Shown here piece after piece: positions 1 through 8,765 of a stretch of 64,000 nt of DNA (within the stretch, counting starts at the first letter, position 1; each line of letters opens with the position of its first letter). Source of the stretch: a bacterium (lineage in GTDB: Bacteria; Patescibacteriota; Minisyncoccia; Phycocordibacterales; UBA1006); NCBI GenBank assembly GCA_030433255.1, contig JAUIMI010000001.1:23378-87377 (forward strand), in the 5' to 3' direction. The translations under genes were made by a program, and so were the position numbers. Under the pieces are notes generated by a model, which had not been told where the DNA came from, did no database searches, and saw nothing but the letters and a program-made list of their open reading frames with translations.

Positions 1-41
1 CTTGTTTGGGATTTTAGTAATTATCTCTATAATAGAATTAT

Positions 42-236
42 ATGAATACAGAACTAAAACGACCATCATGGGATGAATATTTTATTGAAATCATGTATAT
101 GGTTGGGAAACGTGGAACCTGCGATCGTGGTCAGGTTGGATCAGTTATCACCCGTGATAATCGTATATTGGCAACAGGGTATGCTGGAGCTCCATCAGGC
201 ATTGCACATTGTGATGATGTCGGGCATGAAATGCAT
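42..236 (+). pseudogene. dCMP deaminase (ComEB-like) 5' fragment, interrupted after ~64 codons; the ORF runs on to 335 through element-derived sequence
   Basis: N-terminal RPSWDEYF...GTCDRGQVGSVI..ILATGYAGAP.G.AHCDDVGHEM matches the dCMP/cytidine deaminase N-terminus. Similarity stops after HEM at ~233 and the zinc motifs HAE/PCxxC are missing from this ORF. Confidence 0.6.
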
Positions 237-303
237 ATGGTTACGCATGACGGTGGAAGTACATCCAAATCTTTGATGAAGTTCGACAATATTATATCAA
301 ATG

Positions 304-329
304 AAAACCCTTCAAAAGAAGGGTTTTTT
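304..329. terminator. Hairpin AAAACCC-n10-GGGTTTTTT, bidirectional terminator-like
   Basis: Perfect 7-bp GC-containing stem with flanking A/T runs at the end of the minus-strand lipoprotein gene. Confidence 0.45.
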
Positions 330-344
330 AATTAAAATTTTAGA

Positions 345-1469
345 CTACTTATACCAAGTATCAGTACCAGGAACTGAAATTGGCCATCCAGAACCAAATG
401 GTCGCACACTAGGAACTACATTATCAATATCTACCACTAACACTCCACTTACATAGAAATCATCATTAAAAACTGACCACGTGTTATACACATTTGCAGG
501 CCATCTTTGACCTCGTTGAAAAACTACCTGAGCATTATCTTGATCTGCATTACCTTCATCAGTAACAATATAATTTTTATACTGCTTGAATGATTTAATT
601 TCGGCAGCATCAGCACAGCCAATGGTAAAAGTTTTAATATGATTAGGGTCAGTATCCCTGGTATCTAAGTACGCTCTAGGTAAACTAGATGCAGCATAGT
701 GGACATTTGGGACTCCATTAATATATTCACTATCATCTAGATATGTTCCTGGACCAAGGCTAGAATTTGAAGAATTATTCAAATTAAAATCAGGTTCAAA
801 CGTTACATTATCAGACCACTCACCAAATGGATCATTTGTAATCCAAATCATAGCTGTTAGTAGGTAACGTTTGCCAGGATAAGAAGTAGACTCTTTAATA
901 CGATAACCATAAGCATCTGGAATCCATGAATCAGAAGATCCATTTCTTTGAGAAAAATTATTTGATTCTCTTCTTACATCTGGAATACTCTGTTTCTCTG
1001 AACGAATCACCTTGGATGATGAAAAAATCTCATTTACCTTGTTCTCATCAAGAGAAACATTTGTAATCATCATTTCCGATATATTATAAAGTTCTTGACT
1101 TCGAGAAACTGAACCGCTTGATTTTGATACATATTTTCCTATTTGTATCTCAGGCTCACTTTCTAAACCACTAATGCCCTTGTTAATTGTCTCATTAAAG
1201 GTAATTTGATTAGAATTTTCTGTTAACGGAACAAAGCCACGAAATGGTGTTCCTCCTAGTGAAAAATTATGTGTCACAACAATCGAGGATTTACTAATAC
1301 CCAATTGATTTATTTGTGACTCTAATTCCGAATAAGAAATAGGTTTTTCAAATAAAACTTGAAAATTAGATTCAGTATCAACTGCTGATTGCTCTTGCGA
1401 GAGGTCTTCATCTTTTGAACAAGAAGTTATCATTGCTGAAATTGCAATGATCATAAGAAATTTTTTCAT
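345..1469 (-). CDS. Hypothetical lipoprotein (signal peptide + lipobox ITSC)
   Basis: The N-terminus MKKFLMIIAISAMITSCSKDE is typical of a lipoprotein signal. No recognisable catalytic motif. Lies within the inserted element. Confidence 0.5.
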   Translation of the reverse strand: MKKFLMIIAISAMITSCSKDEDLSQEQSAVDTESNFQVLFEKPISYSELESQINQLGISKSSIVVTHNFSLGGTPFRGFVPLTENSNQITFNETINKGISGLESEPEIQIGKYVSKSSGSVSRSQELYNISEMMITNVSLDENKVNEIFSSSKVIRSEKQSIPDVRRESNNFSQRNGSSDSWIPDAYGYRIKESTSYPGKRYLLTAMIWITNDPFGEWSDNVTFEPDFNLNNSSNSSLGPGTYLDDSEYINGVPNVHYAASSLPRAYLDTRDTDPNHIKTFTIGCADAAEIKSFKQYKNYIVTDEGNADQDNAQVVFQRGQRWPANVYNTWSVFNDDFYVSGVLVVDIDNVVPSVRPFGSGWPISVPGTDTWYK

Positions 1470-1549
1470 AAAAAAGTATTTAATTGTTTATAGAACAAAA
1501 TTGTTCGAAGTAAGATTAACTTATTTCTTTAAAAATGTAAAATAATAAC

Positions 1550-2005
1550 ATGAAAATTTTACGAACTTATTTAAAGAAAATTATCATCTCTTTAATTGTA
1601 TATATAATACTAAGATATATTCTCCTTAATATAATAGGATATAGCCATCTTATTAACTCTGATTATCTAACACTTATATTAATTTTTATTAGTCCGCTTT
1701 TACATATATTTTCATATCTATTTCTTATAAAAAAGATATTCAAAAAAGACATATTATCTAATATAATTCTATATCTATTTAACAATAACATTTACTTCTT
1801 ATATTCATATCTTTCATATCATCTCATTTATGAGTCTTTTTACGTATATCAGCCATTTTTTACAGGCAACCCTCCTGAAGATTTTATACTAGTTGATGCT
1901 TTTAGTAGTGTTCATTTTATGAGTAAGATGAGTTTTATATTATTTATTACAAGTTTTTTTCTTCTTATATTATTTATTACTATAAGAAGAAAATATTTTA
2001 AATAG
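1550..2005 (+). CDS. Hypothetical small membrane protein (very hydrophobic, I/L/F/Y-rich)
   Basis: ORF in an extremely AT-rich stretch with several predicted TM helices. It could be spurious. Confidence 0.3.
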   Translation: MKILRTYLKKIIISLIVYIILRYILLNIIGYSHLINSDYLTLILIFISPLLHIFSYLFLIKKIFKKDILSNIILYLFNNNIYFLYSYLSYHLIYESFYVYQPFFTGNPPEDFILVDAFSSVHFMSKMSFILFITSFFLLILFITIRRKYFK

Positions 2006-2516
2006 CATTAATTGTATTCAAAATATCTTGGATCTTTTTTGAATACAACTCCCCAACCTTCACTCTATAAAACTTAATACCAACTGAATTCAAAATATCA
2101 TCCTTAATCTTGTCATACTTTCCTTGTTTTTCTGTATCATGTGATTTTCCGTCAAGCTCAATAACTGCAAGGATATTTCCATAATGATTATCTAAAATTA
2201 CAAAATCAAGATGTTTTGATTTAATATAATTTCTTTTAATACCTTTCTCTTTCCAATCAAGTGATTTCTTTGCACTAACGATATCTTCCAATCTTACTTT
2301 TGAAAGAATCGTATATTGATTATTATTTTGTTTCACTAATTCATTGAAAAAAGTTTTCTCTGATTGAGTAAAGAAATATTTTTTAAGGGTGAAATATGGA
2401 CCAATATTATCTATTGGTTTTTTATCTATTTCAGAGTTATTTTCTGAAGATTTTAATTTCTGAATAACGATGTATGCAATGAATACAAGAGCAACAAGAA
2501 TAAATAGTGATTTCAT
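1998..2516 (-). CDS. DUF2726-like (restriction-endonuclease-fold/NERD-like) domain protein with N-terminal TM helix
   Basis: Pattern HLDFVILD...ILAVIELDGKSH...KDDILNSVGIKFYRV resembles the DUF2726 signature (DFVI.D..xxAIELDxxxH...D..L...GI...R). Confidence 0.4.
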   Translation of the reverse strand: MKSLFILVALVFIAYIVIQKLKSSENNSEIDKKPIDNIGPYFTLKKYFFTQSEKTFFNELVKQNNNQYTILSKVRLEDIVSAKKSLDWKEKGIKRNYIKSKHLDFVILDNHYGNILAVIELDGKSHDTEKQGKYDKIKDDILNSVGIKFYRVKVGELYSKKIQDILNTINAI

Positions 2517-2744
2517 AATATAACTGGATTATTTGATAAATGAACCCAGCACAAAACTCCCCACAGAGAGTTCTGAGCAAAGCTCACATATCCGTTTCCA
2601 GATACGACCAGACGAAAGCGAAAAGTGAACCCCTATGAGGAGTTTTCTACTTTCGTCTGGAATTTTTACACCATACCTCTTTCAAGGGTTAGGTTTATCA
2701 ATTTCGTATTTAATTACCTATATTTTAATATATAATTTTTATAT

Positions 2745-3584
2745 ATGGAAATAACTCCTGAAAATAAACAAATACTTAAAGTCATTAATGCACTTATTGA
2801 AAAACGACATAACTCTAAATACATCAATGAATGCCCATTTTCTGTTGTAACTCTTAAGCACCTAGAATTAATAGATCTTGATTGTTTTGAAGCATCACGA
2901 CTTTTTAATGATTTAAAAAATTACGAAGCTATTGAATTAACCAATGAAGAAGAATTTAAGAAAGTGGTCGAAATGATCGGTGAAGAAATAATGATAAAAG
3001 TTGATGAGAAGATTAAAAAAGGAAAAAGCTCATATAAACAAGTACAAAAGAATCTTGAAAATATGATGAAATATGTAGGAATTGAACCTACTAAAGAAGA
3101 ACTTAAAAAAGATATCACCCTAAAGGAATTAGAATCTTTTAAAAAACGAGTAACAAATACCATTGATGAGGAACTTCTGAAATCAAAAGAAATTGGTATT
3201 TATAAGATCAAGAAAGATCTCCATAAGATGCGAAGATATATCTTAGGTGGGCGTGATTTCTATAATATGGATAAAGAGTTTTTAAGTTTAGATGTAGAAA
3301 CTCAAATTATTGATTTAAACGGTAGACTTATTTCAATTAAACAAAATCCTCCCCTGAAAGGACAATATCTCCTTGAATACATTTTAAAAAATGATGCAAA
3401 GAAAAAATATCCTCTTGATGAACTTGTAGAAGATAATGTTATTCCAGACGGAAACAAAAGGACATATATTGATGCTGTGATCAATTTAAATAAACGAGTT
3501 AAAAAAGAAACTCACGGAGACATCAATGACTTACTTAAAAAATCAGGAGATTATTATTTCATCAAAGATCAATATACTATGTAG
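2745..3584 (+). CDS. Hypothetical protein (element cargo)
   Basis: Clean 279-aa ORF, K/E-rich, no recognised motif. Followed by hairpin AACTCGCAG-n15-CTGCGAGTT at ~3637-3670. Confidence 0.45.
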   Translation: MEITPENKQILKVINALIEKRHNSKYINECPFSVVTLKHLELIDLDCFEASRLFNDLKNYEAIELTNEEEFKKVVEMIGEEIMIKVDEKIKKGKSSYKQVQKNLENMMKYVGIEPTKEELKKDITLKELESFKKRVTNTIDEELLKSKEIGIYKIKKDLHKMRRYILGGRDFYNMDKEFLSLDVETQIIDLNGRLISIKQNPPLKGQYLLEYILKNDAKKKYPLDELVEDNVIPDGNKRTYIDAVINLNKRVKKETHGDINDLLKKSGDYYFIKDQYTM

Positions 3585-3964
3585 TTGAGTAAAATACTCA
3601 ACTAAGCTCAACAAGTGAAATGAAAAAATAAAACTCGCAGGGACGCCTCTGGCTGCTGCGAGTTTTATCATGCACAATTACTCACAACAACTCATGAAAA
3701 AATATCAAGACTACATGAAAACAACTCATGGGATTTTTGTTGATGATGATACGGCTCAAATATACCTCGAAAGTTTCGCCACCGTCTTCCTTGCATTACG
3801 AAAACTAATCACAGACGAATAGACTTTTCTTTCGTGGTACTTGTAAATCAAAACTATGAATATCGTCAATGAGCGAAGCGAAATTGATGATGTGAATAGT
3901 TTTGATACAAGTACATGCACAGAAGAAAGTCTATGTGATTACTTTTATTAATCTAATATTATTT

Positions 3965-3995
3965 GTTGCCGTAGTATAGTATTACCTACGGCAAC
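3965..3995 (+). other. Putative rolling-circle origin stem-loop: GTTGCCGTAG-[TATAGTATTAC]-CTACGGCAAC, loop containing nonanucleotide TAGTATTAC
   Basis: Perfect 10-bp inverted repeat with an 11-nt loop. The loop contains the exact circovirus/nanovirus nonanucleotide (nick site), 21 bp upstream of the rep start codon. Confidence 0.7.
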
Positions 3996-4016
3996 TTCTG
4001 GTAACACAAAAACTAT

Positions 4017-4940
4017 ATGACCAATAAAACATCACGAAATTACATATTTACCGTGAACAATTATACGCACAGAATGTTGAAAAAATTTAAACAAATAGCC
4101 AAGTCTTTAGACAAGCATAAATATATTTGCTTTGGACTTGAAGTAGCCCCTGAAACTGGAAACAAACATATTCAGGGATACATTCAATTAAAAGATAGGA
4201 AGAAATTTACCTTCCTTCATGATTATTTTGATCTCCACAAAAAAGGAAAGCAGGATAAATTCCATATTGAATATGCCAATGGCAGTGTTAAGCAAAATCA
4301 ACAATACACCTCTAAAACAAGAGATGAGGACGAAGTACCTAATAAGGTATGGCTTGAATACGGAACACCTACAAAACAAGGTAAACGAACAGATCTTACA
4401 GACCTGAAAGAAAAATTACGAAAAGATCCAAAATCTTTGAGAGAACTTATGAAAGAAGATGTAGTAAGTACACAACAAATGAGATTTGTTGAGGGAATGC
4501 AAAAATATATGTTCTCACACAGAGACCCTAAAAAACCACCAAAGGTGTTTTGGATTTATGGATCAACAGGAAAAGGAAAAACAAAATTAATTTACGACTC
4601 ATTTGAAAGTGTTTGTCCGGTATCAGATTTTAAATGGCCTGGAAATTTCTACTTTCAAGAAGAGTGCCTGTTATTTGATGACTTTCGAGCAGGAGATATT
4701 CCATTCCATACCCTACTTAAGATAGTTGATAGGTATCCTTATACCTTAGCTGTAAAAGGAAGTTTTGTACCACTTAATTCTCCATTCATTGTTATTACTA
4801 GTCCGAAATCAATCAGAAAAACTTTTAACGAATTTCATGAAGACTTAAAACAACTTGAACGAAGAATTAAGGCTGAGATTAATATTGATGCTGAAGAAAT
4901 TGAAAACCTTAAAGAATACATAGGACTAGAAGATTTCTAG
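4017..4940 (+). CDS. rep: Rolling-circle replication initiator Rep, CRESS-DNA/circovirus-like (HUH endonuclease + SF3 helicase)
   Basis: Motif I FTVNNY, motif II KHIQGY (HxQ), motif III YTSK, GTPTKQGKRTDLTDL (cf. circoviral G.P..QGKRSDL), Walker A GSTGKGKT, Walker B LLFDDF, motif C ITSP. Confidence 0.85.
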   Translation: MTNKTSRNYIFTVNNYTHRMLKKFKQIAKSLDKHKYICFGLEVAPETGNKHIQGYIQLKDRKKFTFLHDYFDLHKKGKQDKFHIEYANGSVKQNQQYTSKTRDEDEVPNKVWLEYGTPTKQGKRTDLTDLKEKLRKDPKSLRELMKEDVVSTQQMRFVEGMQKYMFSHRDPKKPPKVFWIYGSTGKGKTKLIYDSFESVCPVSDFKWPGNFYFQEECLLFDDFRAGDIPFHTLLKIVDRYPYTLAVKGSFVPLNSPFIVITSPKSIRKTFNEFHEDLKQLERRIKAEINIDAEEIENLKEYIGLEDF

Positions 4941-4966
4941 TTTTTTATTCACTATTATTAATTTTA

Positions 4967-6574
4967 TTGTATAGTCAAAATATGAAGTATATAATCTACG
5001 CACGTAAATCAACCGATGACTCAGGGAAACAACAATTATCTCTTGAATCTCAAATTACTGAAATGCGTGGACTCGCAAAAATGAATCATCTTGAAATAGT
5101 AAAAGAATTTCAAGAATCACAATCAGCAAAAACTGCAGGACGACCAATCTTTGCAGAAATGTTGCAATACATTCAGGATGGACATGCTGATGCTATTTTA
5201 TGTTGGAAATTAGATAGATTATCACGTAACCCTATTGATACCGGAACTATAACCAGTTTGTTACAAAATAACATCATCAAAGAAATCAAAACCTACCAAA
5301 AGACTTACTACCCTGGTGATAATGCTATTGTAATGGCAGTTGAGCTTGCTATGGCTAATCAATACTCACGTGATCTTTCTACAAATGTAAAACGTGGACT
5401 ACGTACGAAACTCAAAAATGGAGATTGGCCATGGGTTGCACCAATTGGGTACTTAAATGACACAATTAACAAAAGTATTGTGATTGATCCAAAATCATCA
5501 AAATATATCAAGAAGGCTTTTGAGATGTATGCAACTGGGAACTATTCGTATAAAGATATTGAAAAGATTCTCTATGAAAAAGGATTCCGAAGTAAATCAG
5601 GTAAAAAAGTAAGCCATGCCCTTCTCCATCATTCACTAACTAATACTTTCTATTATGGAATTATGGAGCGCCAAGGAGAATATTTTAAAGGAAAGCATAA
5701 ACCAATCATTTCAAAGAAATTATTTGATGAATGTGAAAAGATCCGACTAGGTCATAACAAACCACGACGCAAGAAGCATGTATTCCCCCTGCGAGGTCTT
5801 TTAACTTGTGAGGTATGTGGTTGCCTCATTACTGCTGAGAAACAACGAGGAATTGATTACTATCACTGTACCAATGGAAAAGGTATTTGTGACCAAAAGA
5901 AAAAATTTGTTAGAGGAGAAGAATTAGAAAAACAAATCTTCAATGCCGTGGAAGATGTATGTTTCGATGAAGATATGATTGAAATTATCCATGAAGCAGC
6001 CTTAGAAAAATTCTACTCAGAAAATAAGAATAGAAATGATCATAAGGAAGAGTTAGAGCAGGAGTTACATTTACTTAAATTAAAAGAAGACAAATTATTA
6101 GATTCTATGTTAGATGGAAAAGTTGATAATGATATCTATGAAAAGAAATCAAAATCACTGAAACTAGAACGTCTTGATTTAGAACAAAGAATCGCTCGAA
6201 ATAGTGTAAATATTAAAAAAGAGCTATCTACTTTCGAACAAGCTAAAAATGCTCTAAAAACCTTATATACCTTCAAGATAGCCTATTCTGATGCTGAACC
6301 CATCAAAAAACGTGAGATTTCTTTTGAGTTACTTTCGAATATGACTCTAAAAGACCGAAAAGTCCTTACTGTACAACACAAAAGCCCCTATTCACTACTC
6401 GTAAATAAGGGTAAAAACGTTAGTTTTTCTGAAATGCTCACAACACTGTATTCGAACAACACATGCAGAACAAAATGCTATTGTTTCTGCAGCACGACAT
6501 GGCGTAGCTGTCGAAGGTGGAACATTGTATTGCAAAATGACACCATGTTATACCTGCGCAAAACTTATTATTAA
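4967..6574 (+). CDS. Large serine recombinase (resolvase/invertase catalytic domain + recombinase domain + zinc ribbon); the last ~45 codons are read from host DNA across the right junction
   Basis: Catalytic Ser motif IYARKSTDDSGKQQLSLESQ; Zn ribbon CEVCGC...YYHCTNGKGIC; C-terminal coiled-coil region. The ORF tail overlaps the dCMP deaminase 3' fragment in another frame. Confidence 0.85.
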   Translation: MYSQNMKYIIYARKSTDDSGKQQLSLESQITEMRGLAKMNHLEIVKEFQESQSAKTAGRPIFAEMLQYIQDGHADAILCWKLDRLSRNPIDTGTITSLLQNNIIKEIKTYQKTYYPGDNAIVMAVELAMANQYSRDLSTNVKRGLRTKLKNGDWPWVAPIGYLNDTINKSIVIDPKSSKYIKKAFEMYATGNYSYKDIEKILYEKGFRSKSGKKVSHALLHHSLTNTFYYGIMERQGEYFKGKHKPIISKKLFDECEKIRLGHNKPRRKKHVFPLRGLLTCEVCGCLITAEKQRGIDYYHCTNGKGICDQKKKFVRGEELEKQIFNAVEDVCFDEDMIEIIHEAALEKFYSENKNRNDHKEELEQELHLLKLKEDKLLDSMLDGKVDNDIYEKKSKSLKLERLDLEQRIARNSVNIKKELSTFEQAKNALKTLYTFKIAYSDAEPIKKREISFELLSNMTLKDRKVLTVQHKSPYSLLVNKGKNVSFSEMLTTLYSNNTCRTKCYCFCSTTWRSCRRWNIVLQNDTMLYLRKTYY

Positions 6575-6704
6575 CGCAGGGATAAGGCGAGTGGTAGCAG
6601 CAAAAGATTATCATGCCGGGGCACGTAGTAAAGAAATTTTTACCGAAGCAGGTATCGCATACGAATTACTTGATTCAAATATTGAATCATATGATAACCA
6701 ATAA
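6423..6704 (+). pseudogene. dCMP deaminase 3' fragment (zinc-binding HAEQNAI and PCYTCAKLIINAGIRRV motifs); no start codon of its own
   Basis: Translating codon phase 0 from 6423 gives VFLKCSQHCIRTTHAEQNAIVSAARHGVAVEGGTLYCKMTPCYTCAKLIINAGIRRVVAAKDYH...*. Together with 42..233 this makes a full-length (~150 aa) ComEB-like deaminase. Confidence 0.65.
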
Positions 6705-6709
6705 TATTT

Positions 6710-7039
6710 ATGATTGATTTACAACAATTACAAAAAGAAACCTATCAAAATAAATTAGACAAAGGTTTCAATACAACTGATATTGCTTTGGAGTTTTGTC
6801 GTGCCCACGAAGAATTATCAGAAGCATTTAAAAAATACAACCAAGATGAAGACGGAGTAGGTGAAGAGTTGGCTGATGTAGCTATTTTTCTATTAGGTAT
6901 TTCTGAAATTATGGGGTTTGATTTAGAAACAGAATTAGTAAATAAAATGGAAAAAAACAAAAAACGAAAATACACCACACACATCAATAAAGATGGAAAA
7001 AAAGTATTCATGCGCGTAGCAACAGAAGAAGATAAATAA
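6710..7039 (+). CDS. MazG-like nucleoside triphosphate pyrophosphohydrolase (small all-alpha NTP-PPase)
   Basis: EExxE...EELADVAIFLL metal-binding motif arrangement of MazG/HisE-type NTP-PPases. Confidence 0.6.
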   Translation: MIDLQQLQKETYQNKLDKGFNTTDIALEFCRAHEELSEAFKKYNQDEDGVGEELADVAIFLLGISEIMGFDLETELVNKMEKNKKRKYTTHINKDGKKVFMRVATEEDK

Positions 7040-7064
7040 AAAACCAGCAATTACTGGTTTTTTA
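7039..7064 (+). terminator. Rho-independent terminator AAAACCAG-caatta-CTGGTTTTTT
   Basis: Stem plus T-run immediately after the stop. Confidence 0.6.
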
Positions 7065-7117
7065 TTTTATTTATGATTAAATTAATAAAAAGAAGTTTAA
7101 TTAAAAAAGAATAAAAT

Positions 7118-7453
7118 ATGCCGTTTATTAGAATTATTTCTCAAGATAAATTATCTGATCTAAATAGAAAATTATCTATTAAAAAATTAATAAAAAGAAT
7201 AAAATACTATACTTCACAGGAATTAAAGGTAAATACTTTTTCTGTTGAAGTTACTGAAGCTGGTTTATATGACGAACTCGCAAGTGAGATTGAAATTCGA
7301 ATCACAGCAGATCAAAATCCTATAAGAAATCCTCGAGTGGATATGTATGCTTCAAATATTGAAAAAGATTTAAGTTCTCATACTGAGTATAGAACTAAAT
7401 GTAGAGTTTTTCTTTTTTTAGAAAGAATTGGTTTTGATCAAGAGAAAGGGTAA
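7118..7453 (+). CDS. Hypothetical small protein
   Basis: 111-aa ORF followed by a strong terminator. No recognised motif (begins MPF..., a tautomerase-like start is speculation). Confidence 0.35.
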   Translation: MPFIRIISQDKLSDLNRKLSIKKLIKRIKYYTSQELKVNTFSVEVTEAGLYDELASEIEIRITADQNPIRNPRVDMYASNIEKDLSSHTEYRTKCRVFLFLERIGFDQEKG

Positions 7454-7458
7454 TTATA

Positions 7459-7494
7459 AGAGCCAATTTTGCAAAACAAAATTGGCTCTTTTTA
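7459..7494 (+). terminator. Rho-independent terminator AAGAGCCAATTTTG-caaaac-AAAATTGGCTCTTTTT
   Basis: Perfect 14-bp inverted repeat followed by a T-run. Confidence 0.65.
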
Positions 7495-7553
7495 AATCTC
7501 AAAAAATAAATTTAACAAGTCTTTTTGTCGTTATGATTTGGTATACTAAAAAC

Positions 7554-8765
7554 ATGAAAGATACAAAGATAAAAAATCTACTCGCGGCAGAAAAAAAACG
7601 TCAAAAAAAAGTGGTTAATTTGATTGCATCAGAGAACTATGTATCTGATGATGTGCTCAAGGCTCTTGGTTCAGAAACGACAAACAAATATGCGGAAGGA
7701 TATCCAGGAAAACGATACTATGCAGGAAATGTTATTGTAGACCAAATTGAAACCTTGGCGCAGGAACGTGCATTAACATTATTTAAACTTAATCCTAAAA
7801 AATGGGGGGTTAACGTACAACCACTTTCAGGTTCACCAGCAAATATTGCTGTGTACCAAGCGTTAATAACACCAGGTGCAAAAATTATGGGAATGGATTT
7901 AGCTCAAGGAGGACACCTTACTCATGGACACAATGTGTCATTTTCTGGAAAATTCTGGAAACAAGTCCCATATACCTTGGACAAGAAAACAGAAAAATTA
8001 GACTATGATGCACTGCTTACATTAGCTAAAAAAGAAAAACCAGCCATTATTGTCGCAGGGTACACCGCTTATTCACGAAAAATTAGCTGGAAAAAAATGC
8101 GCGAAATTGCAGACACCGTTGGTGCATATTTATTGGTTGATATGTCACATATTGCAGGGTTAGTTGCAGGTGGAGAACATCCAGCACCATTCAAATATGC
8201 GCACGTTGTTACCACAACAACCCACAAAACATTACGTGGTCCACGTGGAGGAATGATTTTTGCACCAAAAGATGTTTTTATAGAACGAACCTTAAAAAAT
8301 GGAACGCTAAAAAAAGAAAGTATTTTTGATCTCATTCAAAAATCAGTTTTTCCTGGTATGCAAGGCGGACCACACATTAACCAAATTGCAGGAATTGCTG
8401 TGGCACTAAAGGAAGCAAACACGGCATCATTTAAAAAATATGCTGGGCAGGTGGTAAAGAATACTAAAACTTTAGCAAATGAATTAAAAAAACTTGGTTG
8501 GAGAATTATTTCTGGTGGAACTGATAATCATGTATTTTTAATGGATGTATGGAATGATGGGAAAGGTCTTACAGGAAAAGAAGCTTCAGATATATTAGAA
8601 GCTGCCGGAATTATTGTAAATATGAATACGATTCCATATGACGCGCGGTCCCCATTTAATCCTTCTGGTATCCGTATTGGTTGTGCAGCTGAAACAACGC
8701 GTGGTAAAAAAGAAAAAGATATGCTACAACTTGCTCGCCAAATTGATAAAATTTTGCGAAAATAG
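7554..8765 (+). CDS. glyA: Serine hydroxymethyltransferase
   Basis: YAEGYPGKRYYAGN and the PLP-lysine region VVTTTTHKTLRGPRGG. The start is taken at MKDTKIKNLL (7554), not the upstream ORF start 7428, which lies inside the terminator. Confidence 0.9.
   Translation: MKDTKIKNLLAAEKKRQKKVVNLIASENYVSDDVLKALGSETTNKYAEGYPGKRYYAGNVIVDQIETLAQERALTLFKLNPKKWGVNVQPLSGSPANIAVYQALITPGAKIMGMDLAQGGHLTHGHNVSFSGKFWKQVPYTLDKKTEKLDYDALLTLAKKEKPAIIVAGYTAYSRKISWKKMREIADTVGAYLLVDMSHIAGLVAGGEHPAPFKYAHVVTTTTHKTLRGPRGGMIFAPKDVFIERTLKNGTLKKESIFDLIQKSVFPGMQGGPHINQIAGIAVALKEANTASFKKYAGQVVKNTKTLANELKKLGWRIISGGTDNHVFLMDVWNDGKGLTGKEASDILEAAGIIVNMNTIPYDARSPFNPSGIRIGCAAETTRGKKEKDMLQLARQIDKILRK

Follow-up and report, generated by a model that had tools for sequence, protein, structure and literature searches.

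A LOOT RNA (RF03000) with an extended 3' helix in an integrated serine-recombinase element of a patescibacterium, and its proposed role as a leader

The window analyzed here is a stretch of 64,000 nucleotides from contig JAUIMI010000001.1 of the patescibacterial assembly GCA_030433255.1 (positions 23,378 to 87,377), the left part of which harbors an integrated element that encodes a replication protein (Rep) and a large serine recombinase. Within this element, a gap of 228 nt (2517-2744) separates the start codons of two divergent open reading frames (ORFs), one on the minus strand (1998-2516) and one on the plus strand (2745-3584). A first-pass annotation, made from the letters alone, described this gap as a GC-richer island between two genes, and so it is: the GC content amounts to 0.385 in 2501-2700, as compared to 0.19-0.31 in the adjoining 200-nt intervals. 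The perfect 11-bp inverted repeat that had been noticed in the island, CCAGACGAAAG at 2608-2618 and CTTTCGTCTGG at 2650-2660 (letters as read), with 31 nt between the arms, is found at exactly these coordinates, and the nested repeats are present as well, TTCCAGA at 2596-2602 and TCTGGAA at 2656-2662. Upon folding of 2520-2744, which the first-pass annotation had proposed as a check, z = -3.96 is obtained for the plus strand and a far more extreme z = -6.72 for the minus strand; none of the 200 dinucleotide shuffles folds as well on either strand. Three possible identities had been suggested for the island, namely a structured non-coding RNA, a second-strand origin (sso) of rolling-circle replication, and a recombination site. 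The first of these is borne out, since the island contains a full-length LOOT RNA that scores above the gathering threshold and the helices of which covary across about 100 relatives, whereas the other two, as discussed below, find no support. The feature is thus real, and it is a new copy of a known RNA family that has no assigned function.

The family identity of the island as LOOT is secure. A cmscan search against Rfam 15 places LOOT (RF03000) at 2695..2574 of the minus strand with 63.9 bits (gathering score 46.4; E = 1.4e-10), and the model is matched over its full length (positions 1-121 of 121). This is the sole Rfam match at the gathering level within the 64-kb window, where no tRNA, tmRNA or rRNA was found; other Rfam families yielded just sub-threshold chance matches for the island. 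The inverted repeat is helix P3 of the LOOT RNA and only one of the six helices of a structured unit of ~150 nt (2695..2546), and the nested repeats correspond to the base of P3 and to the 5' strand and loop of P4. The first-pass annotation had given neither the folding strand, which is the minus strand, nor the extent of this unit. In the searchable literature, LOOT appears among the 224 candidate RNAs of Weinberg et al. (2017, NAR 45:10811, PMC5737381), is labelled a "metagenomic-based" family (PMC7779021), and figures as an extreme case of cross-covariation (PMC7657543); Rfam 15 has added two base pairs to it (PMC11701678). The supplement of the 2017 paper aside, this searchable literature merely lists the family, and no function, host or partner of LOOT was found there; as far as seen in the same texts, the traits described below, that is, an additional helix (T) with a U tract, the patescibacterial hosts, the fixed place before an ORF and the link to serine recombinases, are absent as well. 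The parts of the RNA and the gene that follows it are these:

2546..2695, minus strand: LOOT RNA with its 3' extension, from P1 to the U-rich tract (full-length match to model R1, see below; fold z = -6.72)
2574..2695, minus strand: part of the RNA under the Rfam LOOT model (cmscan, 63.9 bits)
2669..2695, minus strand: P1/P2 hairpin, with the internal loop CCUAAC / UAUGG corresponding to an 11-nt GAAA-tetraloop receptor (alignment to the Rfam consensus)
2661..2668, minus strand: A-rich linker UAAAAAUU (three A's invariant, a fourth in at least 90% of 101 relatives)
2650..2660, minus strand: 5' strand of P3, CCAGACGAAAG, one arm of the inverted repeat (read directly; paired in the Rfam alignment and in the fold)
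2630..2646, minus strand: 5' strand of helix T, AAAACUCCUCAUAGGGG, within the P3 loop (17 contiguous pairs with 2553-2569 versus 7.4 in shuffled loops)
2608..2618, minus strand: 3' strand of P3, CUUUCGUCUGG, the other arm of the inverted repeat (read directly; paired in the Rfam alignment and in the fold)
2587..2606, minus strand: P4 hairpin, 8 bp, with an invariant GAAA tetraloop at 2595-2598 (Rfam alignment and relatives)
2574..2586, minus strand: P5 hairpin, UGAGC-UUU-GCUCA, 5 bp (Rfam alignment)
2553..2569, minus strand: 3' strand of helix T, UCUCUGUGGGGAGUUUU, ending in a U run that is followed by GUG (duplex with the P3 loop)
2517..2552, minus strand: spacer of 36 nt from helix T to the AUG of the downstream gene (distance count)
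1998..2516, minus strand: downstream cargo gene for a 172-aa DUF2726 protein with an N-terminal hydrophobic segment, restriction-endonuclease-like (Pfam DUF2726, E = 8e-25)

Relatives of this RNA were found with a DNA pattern built from the conserved nucleotides, and ~220 other LOOTs were compared in all. The genome set contains one genome per GTDB species and at least 120 loci (numbered with the prefix L), of which 114 parsed LOOT loci underlie the genome counts given below; the metagenome set consists of contigs among the matches listed, with 109 LOOT loci, and includes many groundwater samples. All 17 pattern-derived relatives that were re-tested proved to be RF03000 matches, with 71-106 bits. 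A plain MAFFT alignment of 101 extended LOOT sequences (A1) served as the basis for covariation counts and for a model of our own (R1; helices P1, P2, T, P4 and P5), which matches 2546..2695 of the minus strand over its full length (69.9 bits, E = 2e-14).

LOOT is found mostly in Patescibacteria. Among the genome matches listed, 61 of the 77 true LOOTs bear names of Patescibacteria, alternatively termed the Candidate Phyla Radiation (CPR), such as Saccharibacteria, Paceibacterota, Microgenomates lineages, Doudna-, Gracili- and Dojkabacteria, and WWE3; six more are unclassified and 10 carry other labels. Contigs of metagenome-assembled genomes that are titled Gammaproteobacteria or Bdellovibrionales also contain true LOOTs (L036, L051, L068, L083, L087, L088, L093, L095, L107, L109), and such contigs with non-CPR titles may reflect either mislabelled bins or a spread beyond the CPR. 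The first pattern scan of viral contigs gave 28 matches, just one of which (L003) is a true LOOT, on a phage-like contig. Exact-protein look-ups of both genes that flank LOOT in the window returned a single common 7-kb contig only.

In the window, the P1/P2 hairpin reads AACCUAAC...GUAUGGUG and leads into the A-rich linker, the first pair of P1 being an A-G mismatch. Invariant across the 101 relatives are CCUAA and AUGG of the P1/P2 internal loop, the A-linker, GGU at the junction of P3 and P4, and the GAAA loop of P4. Residues C1 C2 U3 A4 A5 / A8 U9 G10 G11 of the receptor agree with those of the 11-nt receptor (11ntR) described in PMC10243134, and positions 6/7 are A/C in 60 relatives, C/U in 32 and C/C in nine. 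Since CCUAA and AUGG make up the core of a receptor for GAAA tetraloops, the GAAA loop of P4 very likely contacts P1/P2, as judged from the sequences.

The sequence similarity among the relatives continues past the 3' end of the Rfam model, and the tail that follows P5 pairs with the apical loop of P3. The resulting helix T was chosen unprompted by RNAalifold on alignment A1, in which 93.9% of its cells are paired and both sides change at 11 of the 11 aligned pairs; for P4, 8 of the 8 aligned pairs covary and 96.2% of the cells are paired. When the contiguous T duplex is counted without any alignment, it averages 11.8 bp, as compared to 6.7 bp for shuffled loops (n = 109), and the mean is 12.5 bp in 105 independent metagenome copies. 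For the structure as a whole, 93.8% of the cells are paired, versus 69.7% in shuffles and 38-46% with the partners slid, so that the structure is kept, and covaries, in the 101 aligned relatives; this was the second check proposed by the first-pass annotation. Helix T is followed in the relatives by a U tract, with a mean of 5.5 U per 10 nt, where the composition of the RNA body (0.235 U per base) would predict 2.35. At two positions of T, U-G pairs are present in 66-69 of the 101 sequences, and their frequent occurrence fixes the folding strand; in the window, helix T comprises 17 bp, including four G-U pairs on the minus strand.

Helix P3 behaves differently. It is hypervariable, with 87 different 10-mers in 114 loci, and its pairs are almost all of the Watson-Crick type (1184 Watson-Crick, 8 G-U and 14 A-C in 1254 cells), unlike those of the other helices, which show 10-60% G-U at many pairs. 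The near absence of G-U would be explained, for instance, if folding of P3 were required on both strands. Read in the antisense direction, P3 together with the complement of the invariant A run resembles a terminator, which could act against read-in towards the recombinase operon. As to the balance between the two long helices, the fold with P3 and the fold with T, in which P3 is open, are nearly isoenergetic (means of -59.8 and -58.2 kcal/mol, respectively), T being the better one in 34 of the 101 sequences. Pairing of the A-linker with the U tract is seen in the constrained minimum-energy fold of just 24 of these sequences and so is not general.

These properties could also be those of a constitutive structural module without any switching, be it a compact, pseudoknotted cap close to the 5' end that shields the cargo mRNA from 5' exonucleases, an insulator that works both ways, or a self-cleaving ribozyme that has escaped detection. 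In the insulator version, T and the U's would stop sense transcription, and P3 with the complement of the A-linker would stop antisense read-in towards the recombinase operon; an almost purely Watson-Crick P3 would be expected if it folds on both strands. Moreover, the conserved nucleotides are nearly all architectural (the receptor, the GAAA loop, the A-linker and the U tract), and the loop-to-tail helix endows the RNA with a ring-like topology. Self-cleaving ribozymes typically reside in diverse, mobile-element-rich neighbourhoods, and those of LOOT are of this kind, but no set of invariant junction nucleotides resembling a catalytic core is visible. The nearly isoenergetic folds and the copies of P3 found at start codons (see below) suggest dynamics instead, and we consider a purely static module unlikely.

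The position of LOOT relative to genes is highly regular. A same-strand ORF follows the RNA in 105 of the 114 genome loci, and seven of the nine loci without such an ORF are truncated at most ~130 nt from the RNA. The ATG follows the end of T at a median distance of ~40 nt (mostly 15-56 nt; 36 nt in the window), which we judge to be too short for an independent promoter. The downstream genes themselves are strikingly diverse: among 103 proteins, 54 Pfam families are represented, none of them in more than three, including DNA methylases, DUF805, trypsin-like peptidases, SNase, pilin-like proteins and SHOCT, as well as Eco57I/MmeI enzymes, bacterial PH domains, T5orf172 and a superinfection-immunity protein. 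The DUF2726 gene is found downstream of LOOT in the window only, among these 103; its product has weaker Pfam matches to MTES_1575 and DUF559 and no match in PADLOC. Such diversity argues against a metabolite riboswitch, no logic of pathway or ligand being apparent among the 103 downstream ORFs.

In a subset of the loci, LOOT is tied to the start of the downstream gene by sequence as well. In 21 of 96 loci, the 3' strand of P3 shows complementarity of 10 nt or more to a site with its end mostly 0-5 nt ahead of the AUG, as compared to 1.2% in controls with swapped RNAs and leaders, and across 190 loci the partner of the start site maps specifically to this strand. The corresponding arrangement, in which "AAAcC + P3 5' strand" is repeated right before the start codon, is seen in ~20% of the loci (e.g. 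L063, 2500-2545; L068; L085; L072; L091), and no Shine-Dalgarno-like sequence is visible where the copy of the P3 5' strand precedes the start codon. A second, downstream copy of the T strand ("t2") is weakly enriched, with 46 of 96 loci versus 31% in swapped controls, and we make no claim on it. Elsewhere in the window, for instance at the ends of the element, the P3 sequence is about as frequent as expected by chance (20 matches with three or fewer mismatches versus 17.3).

The copies of P3 at start codons bring to mind a free-standing, trans-acting small RNA (sRNA) that ends at the U tract, maybe an element-specific immunity RNA like c4 of P1/P7 or CI of P4. The hypervariable 3' strand of P3 would then pair with its matching site where the downstream gene starts, be it on read-through transcripts or on copies of the element that newly arrive. 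Rfam lists LOOT under the type "Gene; sRNA", the 3' end of the RNA is terminator-like, the context is that of mobile elements, P3 is hypervariable, and the triple arrangement a / a' / a2 in ~20% of the loci recalls c4, which is organized as a1b1 / a'b' / a2b2. An operon is shared by c4 and the genes that it represses (PMC8198154). In LOOT, however, the antisense strand is locked in an 11-bp helix rather than exposed in a loop, a matching target site is missing from 80% of the loci, the window included, unrelated cargo genes would be targeted in place of a conserved antirepressor, and no match to the Rfam family C4 was obtained at E up to 10. We therefore regard a trans-acting sRNA as improbable.

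On its other side, LOOT is linked to serine recombinases. The gene concerned is, in the window:

4982..6574, plus strand: large serine recombinase, upstream of and divergent from LOOT (Pfam Resolvase, Recombinase and Zn_ribbon_recom)

It lies 2287 nt upstream of LOOT, on the opposite strand. Among 100 loci, the gene upstream of LOOT is divergent in 66 and co-directional in 34, and the commonest family there by far is that of large serine recombinases (15 of 100). By tblastn, the window recombinase has a relative in ~45 of 121 genome loci, 43 of which belong to the 114 parsed LOOT loci, and the other proteins of the element, including Rep, have no tblastn relative in the 121 genome loci. The recombinase is upstream and on the opposite strand in 35 of these 43 loci, in 12 of them at a distance of just 150-225 nt, and never downstream and opposite (0 of 43). 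Metagenome loci give a similar picture: a recombinase is present in 33 of the 109, its arrangements being split 23 / 6 / 4 / 0, so that 23 of the 33 are arranged as in the window. Overall, a large serine recombinase is found within the fetched locus in 30-37% of the LOOT loci (L031-L150 and L151-L270). The window shares this layout, with two extra genes, those for a 279-aa protein and for Rep, located between LOOT and the recombinase. The smallest units measure ~2 kb; an example is L101 (1207-3350), where a unit of ~2.1 kb comprising the recombinase, LOOT and one gene is packed between other genes.

Pairs of loci that share both the recombinase and LOOT are 65-80% identical over 1-1.6 kb, and their similarity ends between the 3' end of LOOT and the first codons of the downstream ORF: the platform of recombinase and LOOT is kept, and the cargo is exchanged. 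Arrays of LOOT-gene cassettes were sought as well and discarded, there being one LOOT per locus, apart from one weak match of 29.8 bits in L125. Genes for tRNA were seen beside the 3' end of the recombinase gene or overlapping it in L091 (4905-4975), L039 (979-1227) and L031 (101-172 and 3490-3559), which suggests that tRNA genes are integration targets of related elements.

In the window, the ends of the element are marked by a split dCMP-deaminase gene, with the N-terminal part at 42-~260 and the C-terminal part at ~6440-6704; the deaminase frame breaks at ~255-262 and resumes at ~6436-6447 with ...HCIRTTHAEQNAI.... The element thus measures ~6.2 kb, and its recombination junctions lie ~2.3 kb and ~3.7 kb from LOOT. 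The ORF of the recombinase runs ~130 nt past the right junction, so that integration alters the C-terminus of the enzyme.

The exchange of cargo next to a retained recombinase and LOOT raises the question of whether the unit works at the level of DNA, with the perfect palindrome of P3, and a third copy of it where the cargo begins, being used by the serine recombinase, or by another enzyme, for exchange or inversion of cargo in an integron-like fashion. Besides the point at which similarity stops, the avoidance of G-U in P3 fits such a site, and the layout of divergent recombinase, promoter, site and cargo resembles that of intI-Pc-attI. Yet the covariation of P1, P2, P4, P5 and T includes many G-U pairs, a signature of RNA; no repeated site follows the cargo, the loci having one LOOT each; and the third copy of P3 occurs in just ~20% of the loci. 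Furthermore, large serine recombinases use att sites of ~40-50 bp, and an att site should be found at the ends of the element, split by integration, whereas LOOT sits intact ~2.3 kb inside, remote from both junctions. A DNA-level site of this kind appears very improbable, and the recombination site envisaged in the first-pass annotation has likewise gained no support.

The element contains three cargo-like genes (345-1469, 1550-2005 and the DUF2726 gene), LOOT, the gene for the 279-aa protein, Rep and the recombinase; PHROGs and PADLOC had nothing useful to offer on its unknown proteins. Rep (4017-4940, plus strand) is a CRESS-like HUH protein with Viral_Rep and RNA_helicase domains. Just upstream of rep, at 3964-3994, there is a hairpin, GTTGCCGTAG-TATAGTATTAC-CTACGGCAAC, the loop of which carries the CRESS-type nonanucleotide TAGTATTAC and which has a weak match to the Rfam family "ssNA-helicase" (24 bits, below the gathering score). 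It is unusual for a probable CPR genome to combine a Rep that resembles those of eukaryotic viruses with a serine integrase; viral contigs yielded no relatives of this Rep.

The presence of an HUH Rep with a helicase domain and of the TAGTATTAC hairpin is what could make the island a single-strand (lagging-strand) origin for rolling-circle replication, the more so as P3 by itself would fold in DNA of either strand. However, G-U pairs on the minus strand are required for T and P4, and both the nick motif TAGTATTAC and rep are on the plus strand. In rolling-circle replication, the displaced strand is the nicked one, so that by the standard model the strand displaced here would be the wrong one. 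In addition, the CS-6 hallmark of ssoA, TAGCGW (TAGCGT/A), is absent from 1-8303 of the window, and none of the 241 other loci brought in by the LOOT pattern has a relative of Rep. The probability of an sso at this place is, in our view, next to nil.

Two further structures of the element deserve mention. A long, imperfect inverted repeat at 3831-3945 (core arms 3847-3870 and 3883-3906, 83% complementary) is flanked by a 50-aa ORF and the origin hairpin and could be an iteron-like or accessory origin structure. After the gene for the 279-aa protein, at 3630-3665, an A run is followed by a stem, ACTCGCAG...CTGCGAGT, with a loop of more than 8 nt, and by a T run, which looks like a two-way terminator. 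Between LOOT and the divergent gene, the following promoter-like sites can be discerned:

2696..2751, both strands: AT-rich region with overlapping divergent promoter-like sites (consensus scan only)
2751-2746 and 2727-2722, minus strand: promoter-like -35 and -10 boxes, respectively (consensus match)
2695-2700 and 2719-2724, plus strand: promoter-like -35 and -10 boxes, respectively (consensus match)

Because the -10 boxes of the LOOT unit and of the unit of the 279-aa protein, Rep and recombinase genes overlap (2719-2727), the two units could exclude each other, insofar as these consensus matches are functional. In the relatives, a fixed-register promoter logo upstream of P1 has a low information content, and TAcAAT-like boxes occur at a variable distance upstream of P1, so that any claims about promoters stay weak.

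Considering the place of LOOT before a same-strand gene, its terminal helix and U tract, and its link to the recombinase, we are inclined, with a slight preponderance of confidence, to view it as a cis-acting leader or attenuator that heads the cargo transcription unit of an integrated serine-recombinase/Rep element. The mechanism can be envisaged as follows. Transcription of the minus strand would proceed from ~2715/2695 to ~2546, starting from the predicted promoter in the AT-rich stretch that is shared with the gene at 2745. The RNA would adopt a compact fold held together by the tetraloop and its receptor, and helix T with the U tract would serve as a built-in intrinsic terminator that ends most transcripts. 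The formation of T would depend on, or compete with, P3 and the tertiary fold, so that the balance between P3 and T, possibly shifted by Mg2+, temperature or a protein, if by anything, would set the read-through over the 36 nt into the DUF2726 gene, the read-through transcript being the cargo mRNA. In about one fifth of the relatives, the 3' strand of P3 may also mask the region of translation start.

Several observations weigh against this attenuator scheme. The window copy is the weakest true member under model R1; the loop of its P5 is UUU, whereas relatives usually have a GNRA-type loop (GCAA or GAAA); the U run after its helix T is short, UUUU and then GUG; and it has no copy of P3 at the start codon, the best match being one of 7 bp, at chance level, at the 5' end of the leader. 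A terminator stem with strands ~60 nt apart that enclose two hairpins would be unusual in itself, and the linkers, with medians of 5 and 6 nt, would also permit P3 and T to coexist in a static pseudoknot. Both ends of the RNA are predictions from sequence, few nucleotides are conserved beyond the structural modules, and the family is typed in Rfam as "Gene; sRNA". Finally, the downstream genes share no common function, no ligand can be proposed, and the RNA is perhaps no switch.

As far as the window is concerned, this is routine annotation, in which a member of a catalogued RNA family receives a strand and borders. Of broader interest is LOOT itself, which has been an orphan since 2017 and for which the comparison suggests a host group, an extended structure, a genomic niche (beside large serine recombinases, heading swapped cargo genes in integrative elements and on a phage-like contig) and, as a proposal, a mechanism of attenuation. 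Should all this hold, the mobile elements of the CPR, a major and little understood bacterial radiation, would commonly use LOOT as a part that controls expression, and the RNA might become a genetic tool for this group. A bolder version, which we hold to be distinctly unlikely, is that the serine recombinase and LOOT form the conserved core of widespread small integrative elements in Patescibacteria, with LOOT as a programmable module in which P3 is an element-specific address repeated at the cargo start. Such an address would control the expression of cargo or immunity against related elements, and perhaps the capture of cargo, and the whole would be an RNA-containing, serine-recombinase counterpart, in functional terms, of the integron platform.

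It is instructive to compare the RNA with known systems. With the LOOT family as defined in RF03000, the window copy shares the full-length match, helices P1-P5, the conserved CCUAA / AUGG / AAAA / GAAA and the same strand logic; unlike the Rfam model, which ends at P5 and is filed as an sRNA, the extended RNA described here includes T and the U tract. To origins of the ssoA type, the island is similar as a GC-richer, structured non-coding stretch in an element with an HUH Rep, but LOOT folds on the wrong strand, lacks CS-6 and occurs as a family without Rep genes. The pseudoknot attenuators and riboswitch platforms, such as ZTP and preQ1, have in common with LOOT the position in a leader, a long-range helix followed by U's, alternative folds of similar energy and, in a subset of LOOTs, the sequestering of the start region. 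Riboswitches usually have a marginal P1 helix, whereas P3 of LOOT is long and perfect, and LOOT has neither a coherent regulon (54 Pfam families) nor pocket-like conserved nucleotides beyond the tetraloop and its receptor, nor a known ligand. Like c4 of P1/P7 and CI of P4, LOOT is borne by mobile elements, stands in the leader of the operon that it could control and, in ~20% of cases, has a variable segment with complementarity both to an upstream copy and to a copy where the downstream gene starts; it differs from them in the absence of any sequence or Rfam relationship, in the burial of this segment in a helix, in its unrelated cargo and, in the window, by having no target site. As regards the integron (intI - Pc - attI - cassette), the recombinase next to LOOT is of the serine rather than the tyrosine type, cassette arrays and attC-like repeats are absent, and the non-coding unit is marked as RNA; what the two systems share is a divergent recombinase, a promoter-bearing non-coding unit and a variable gene that is swapped near its start codon.

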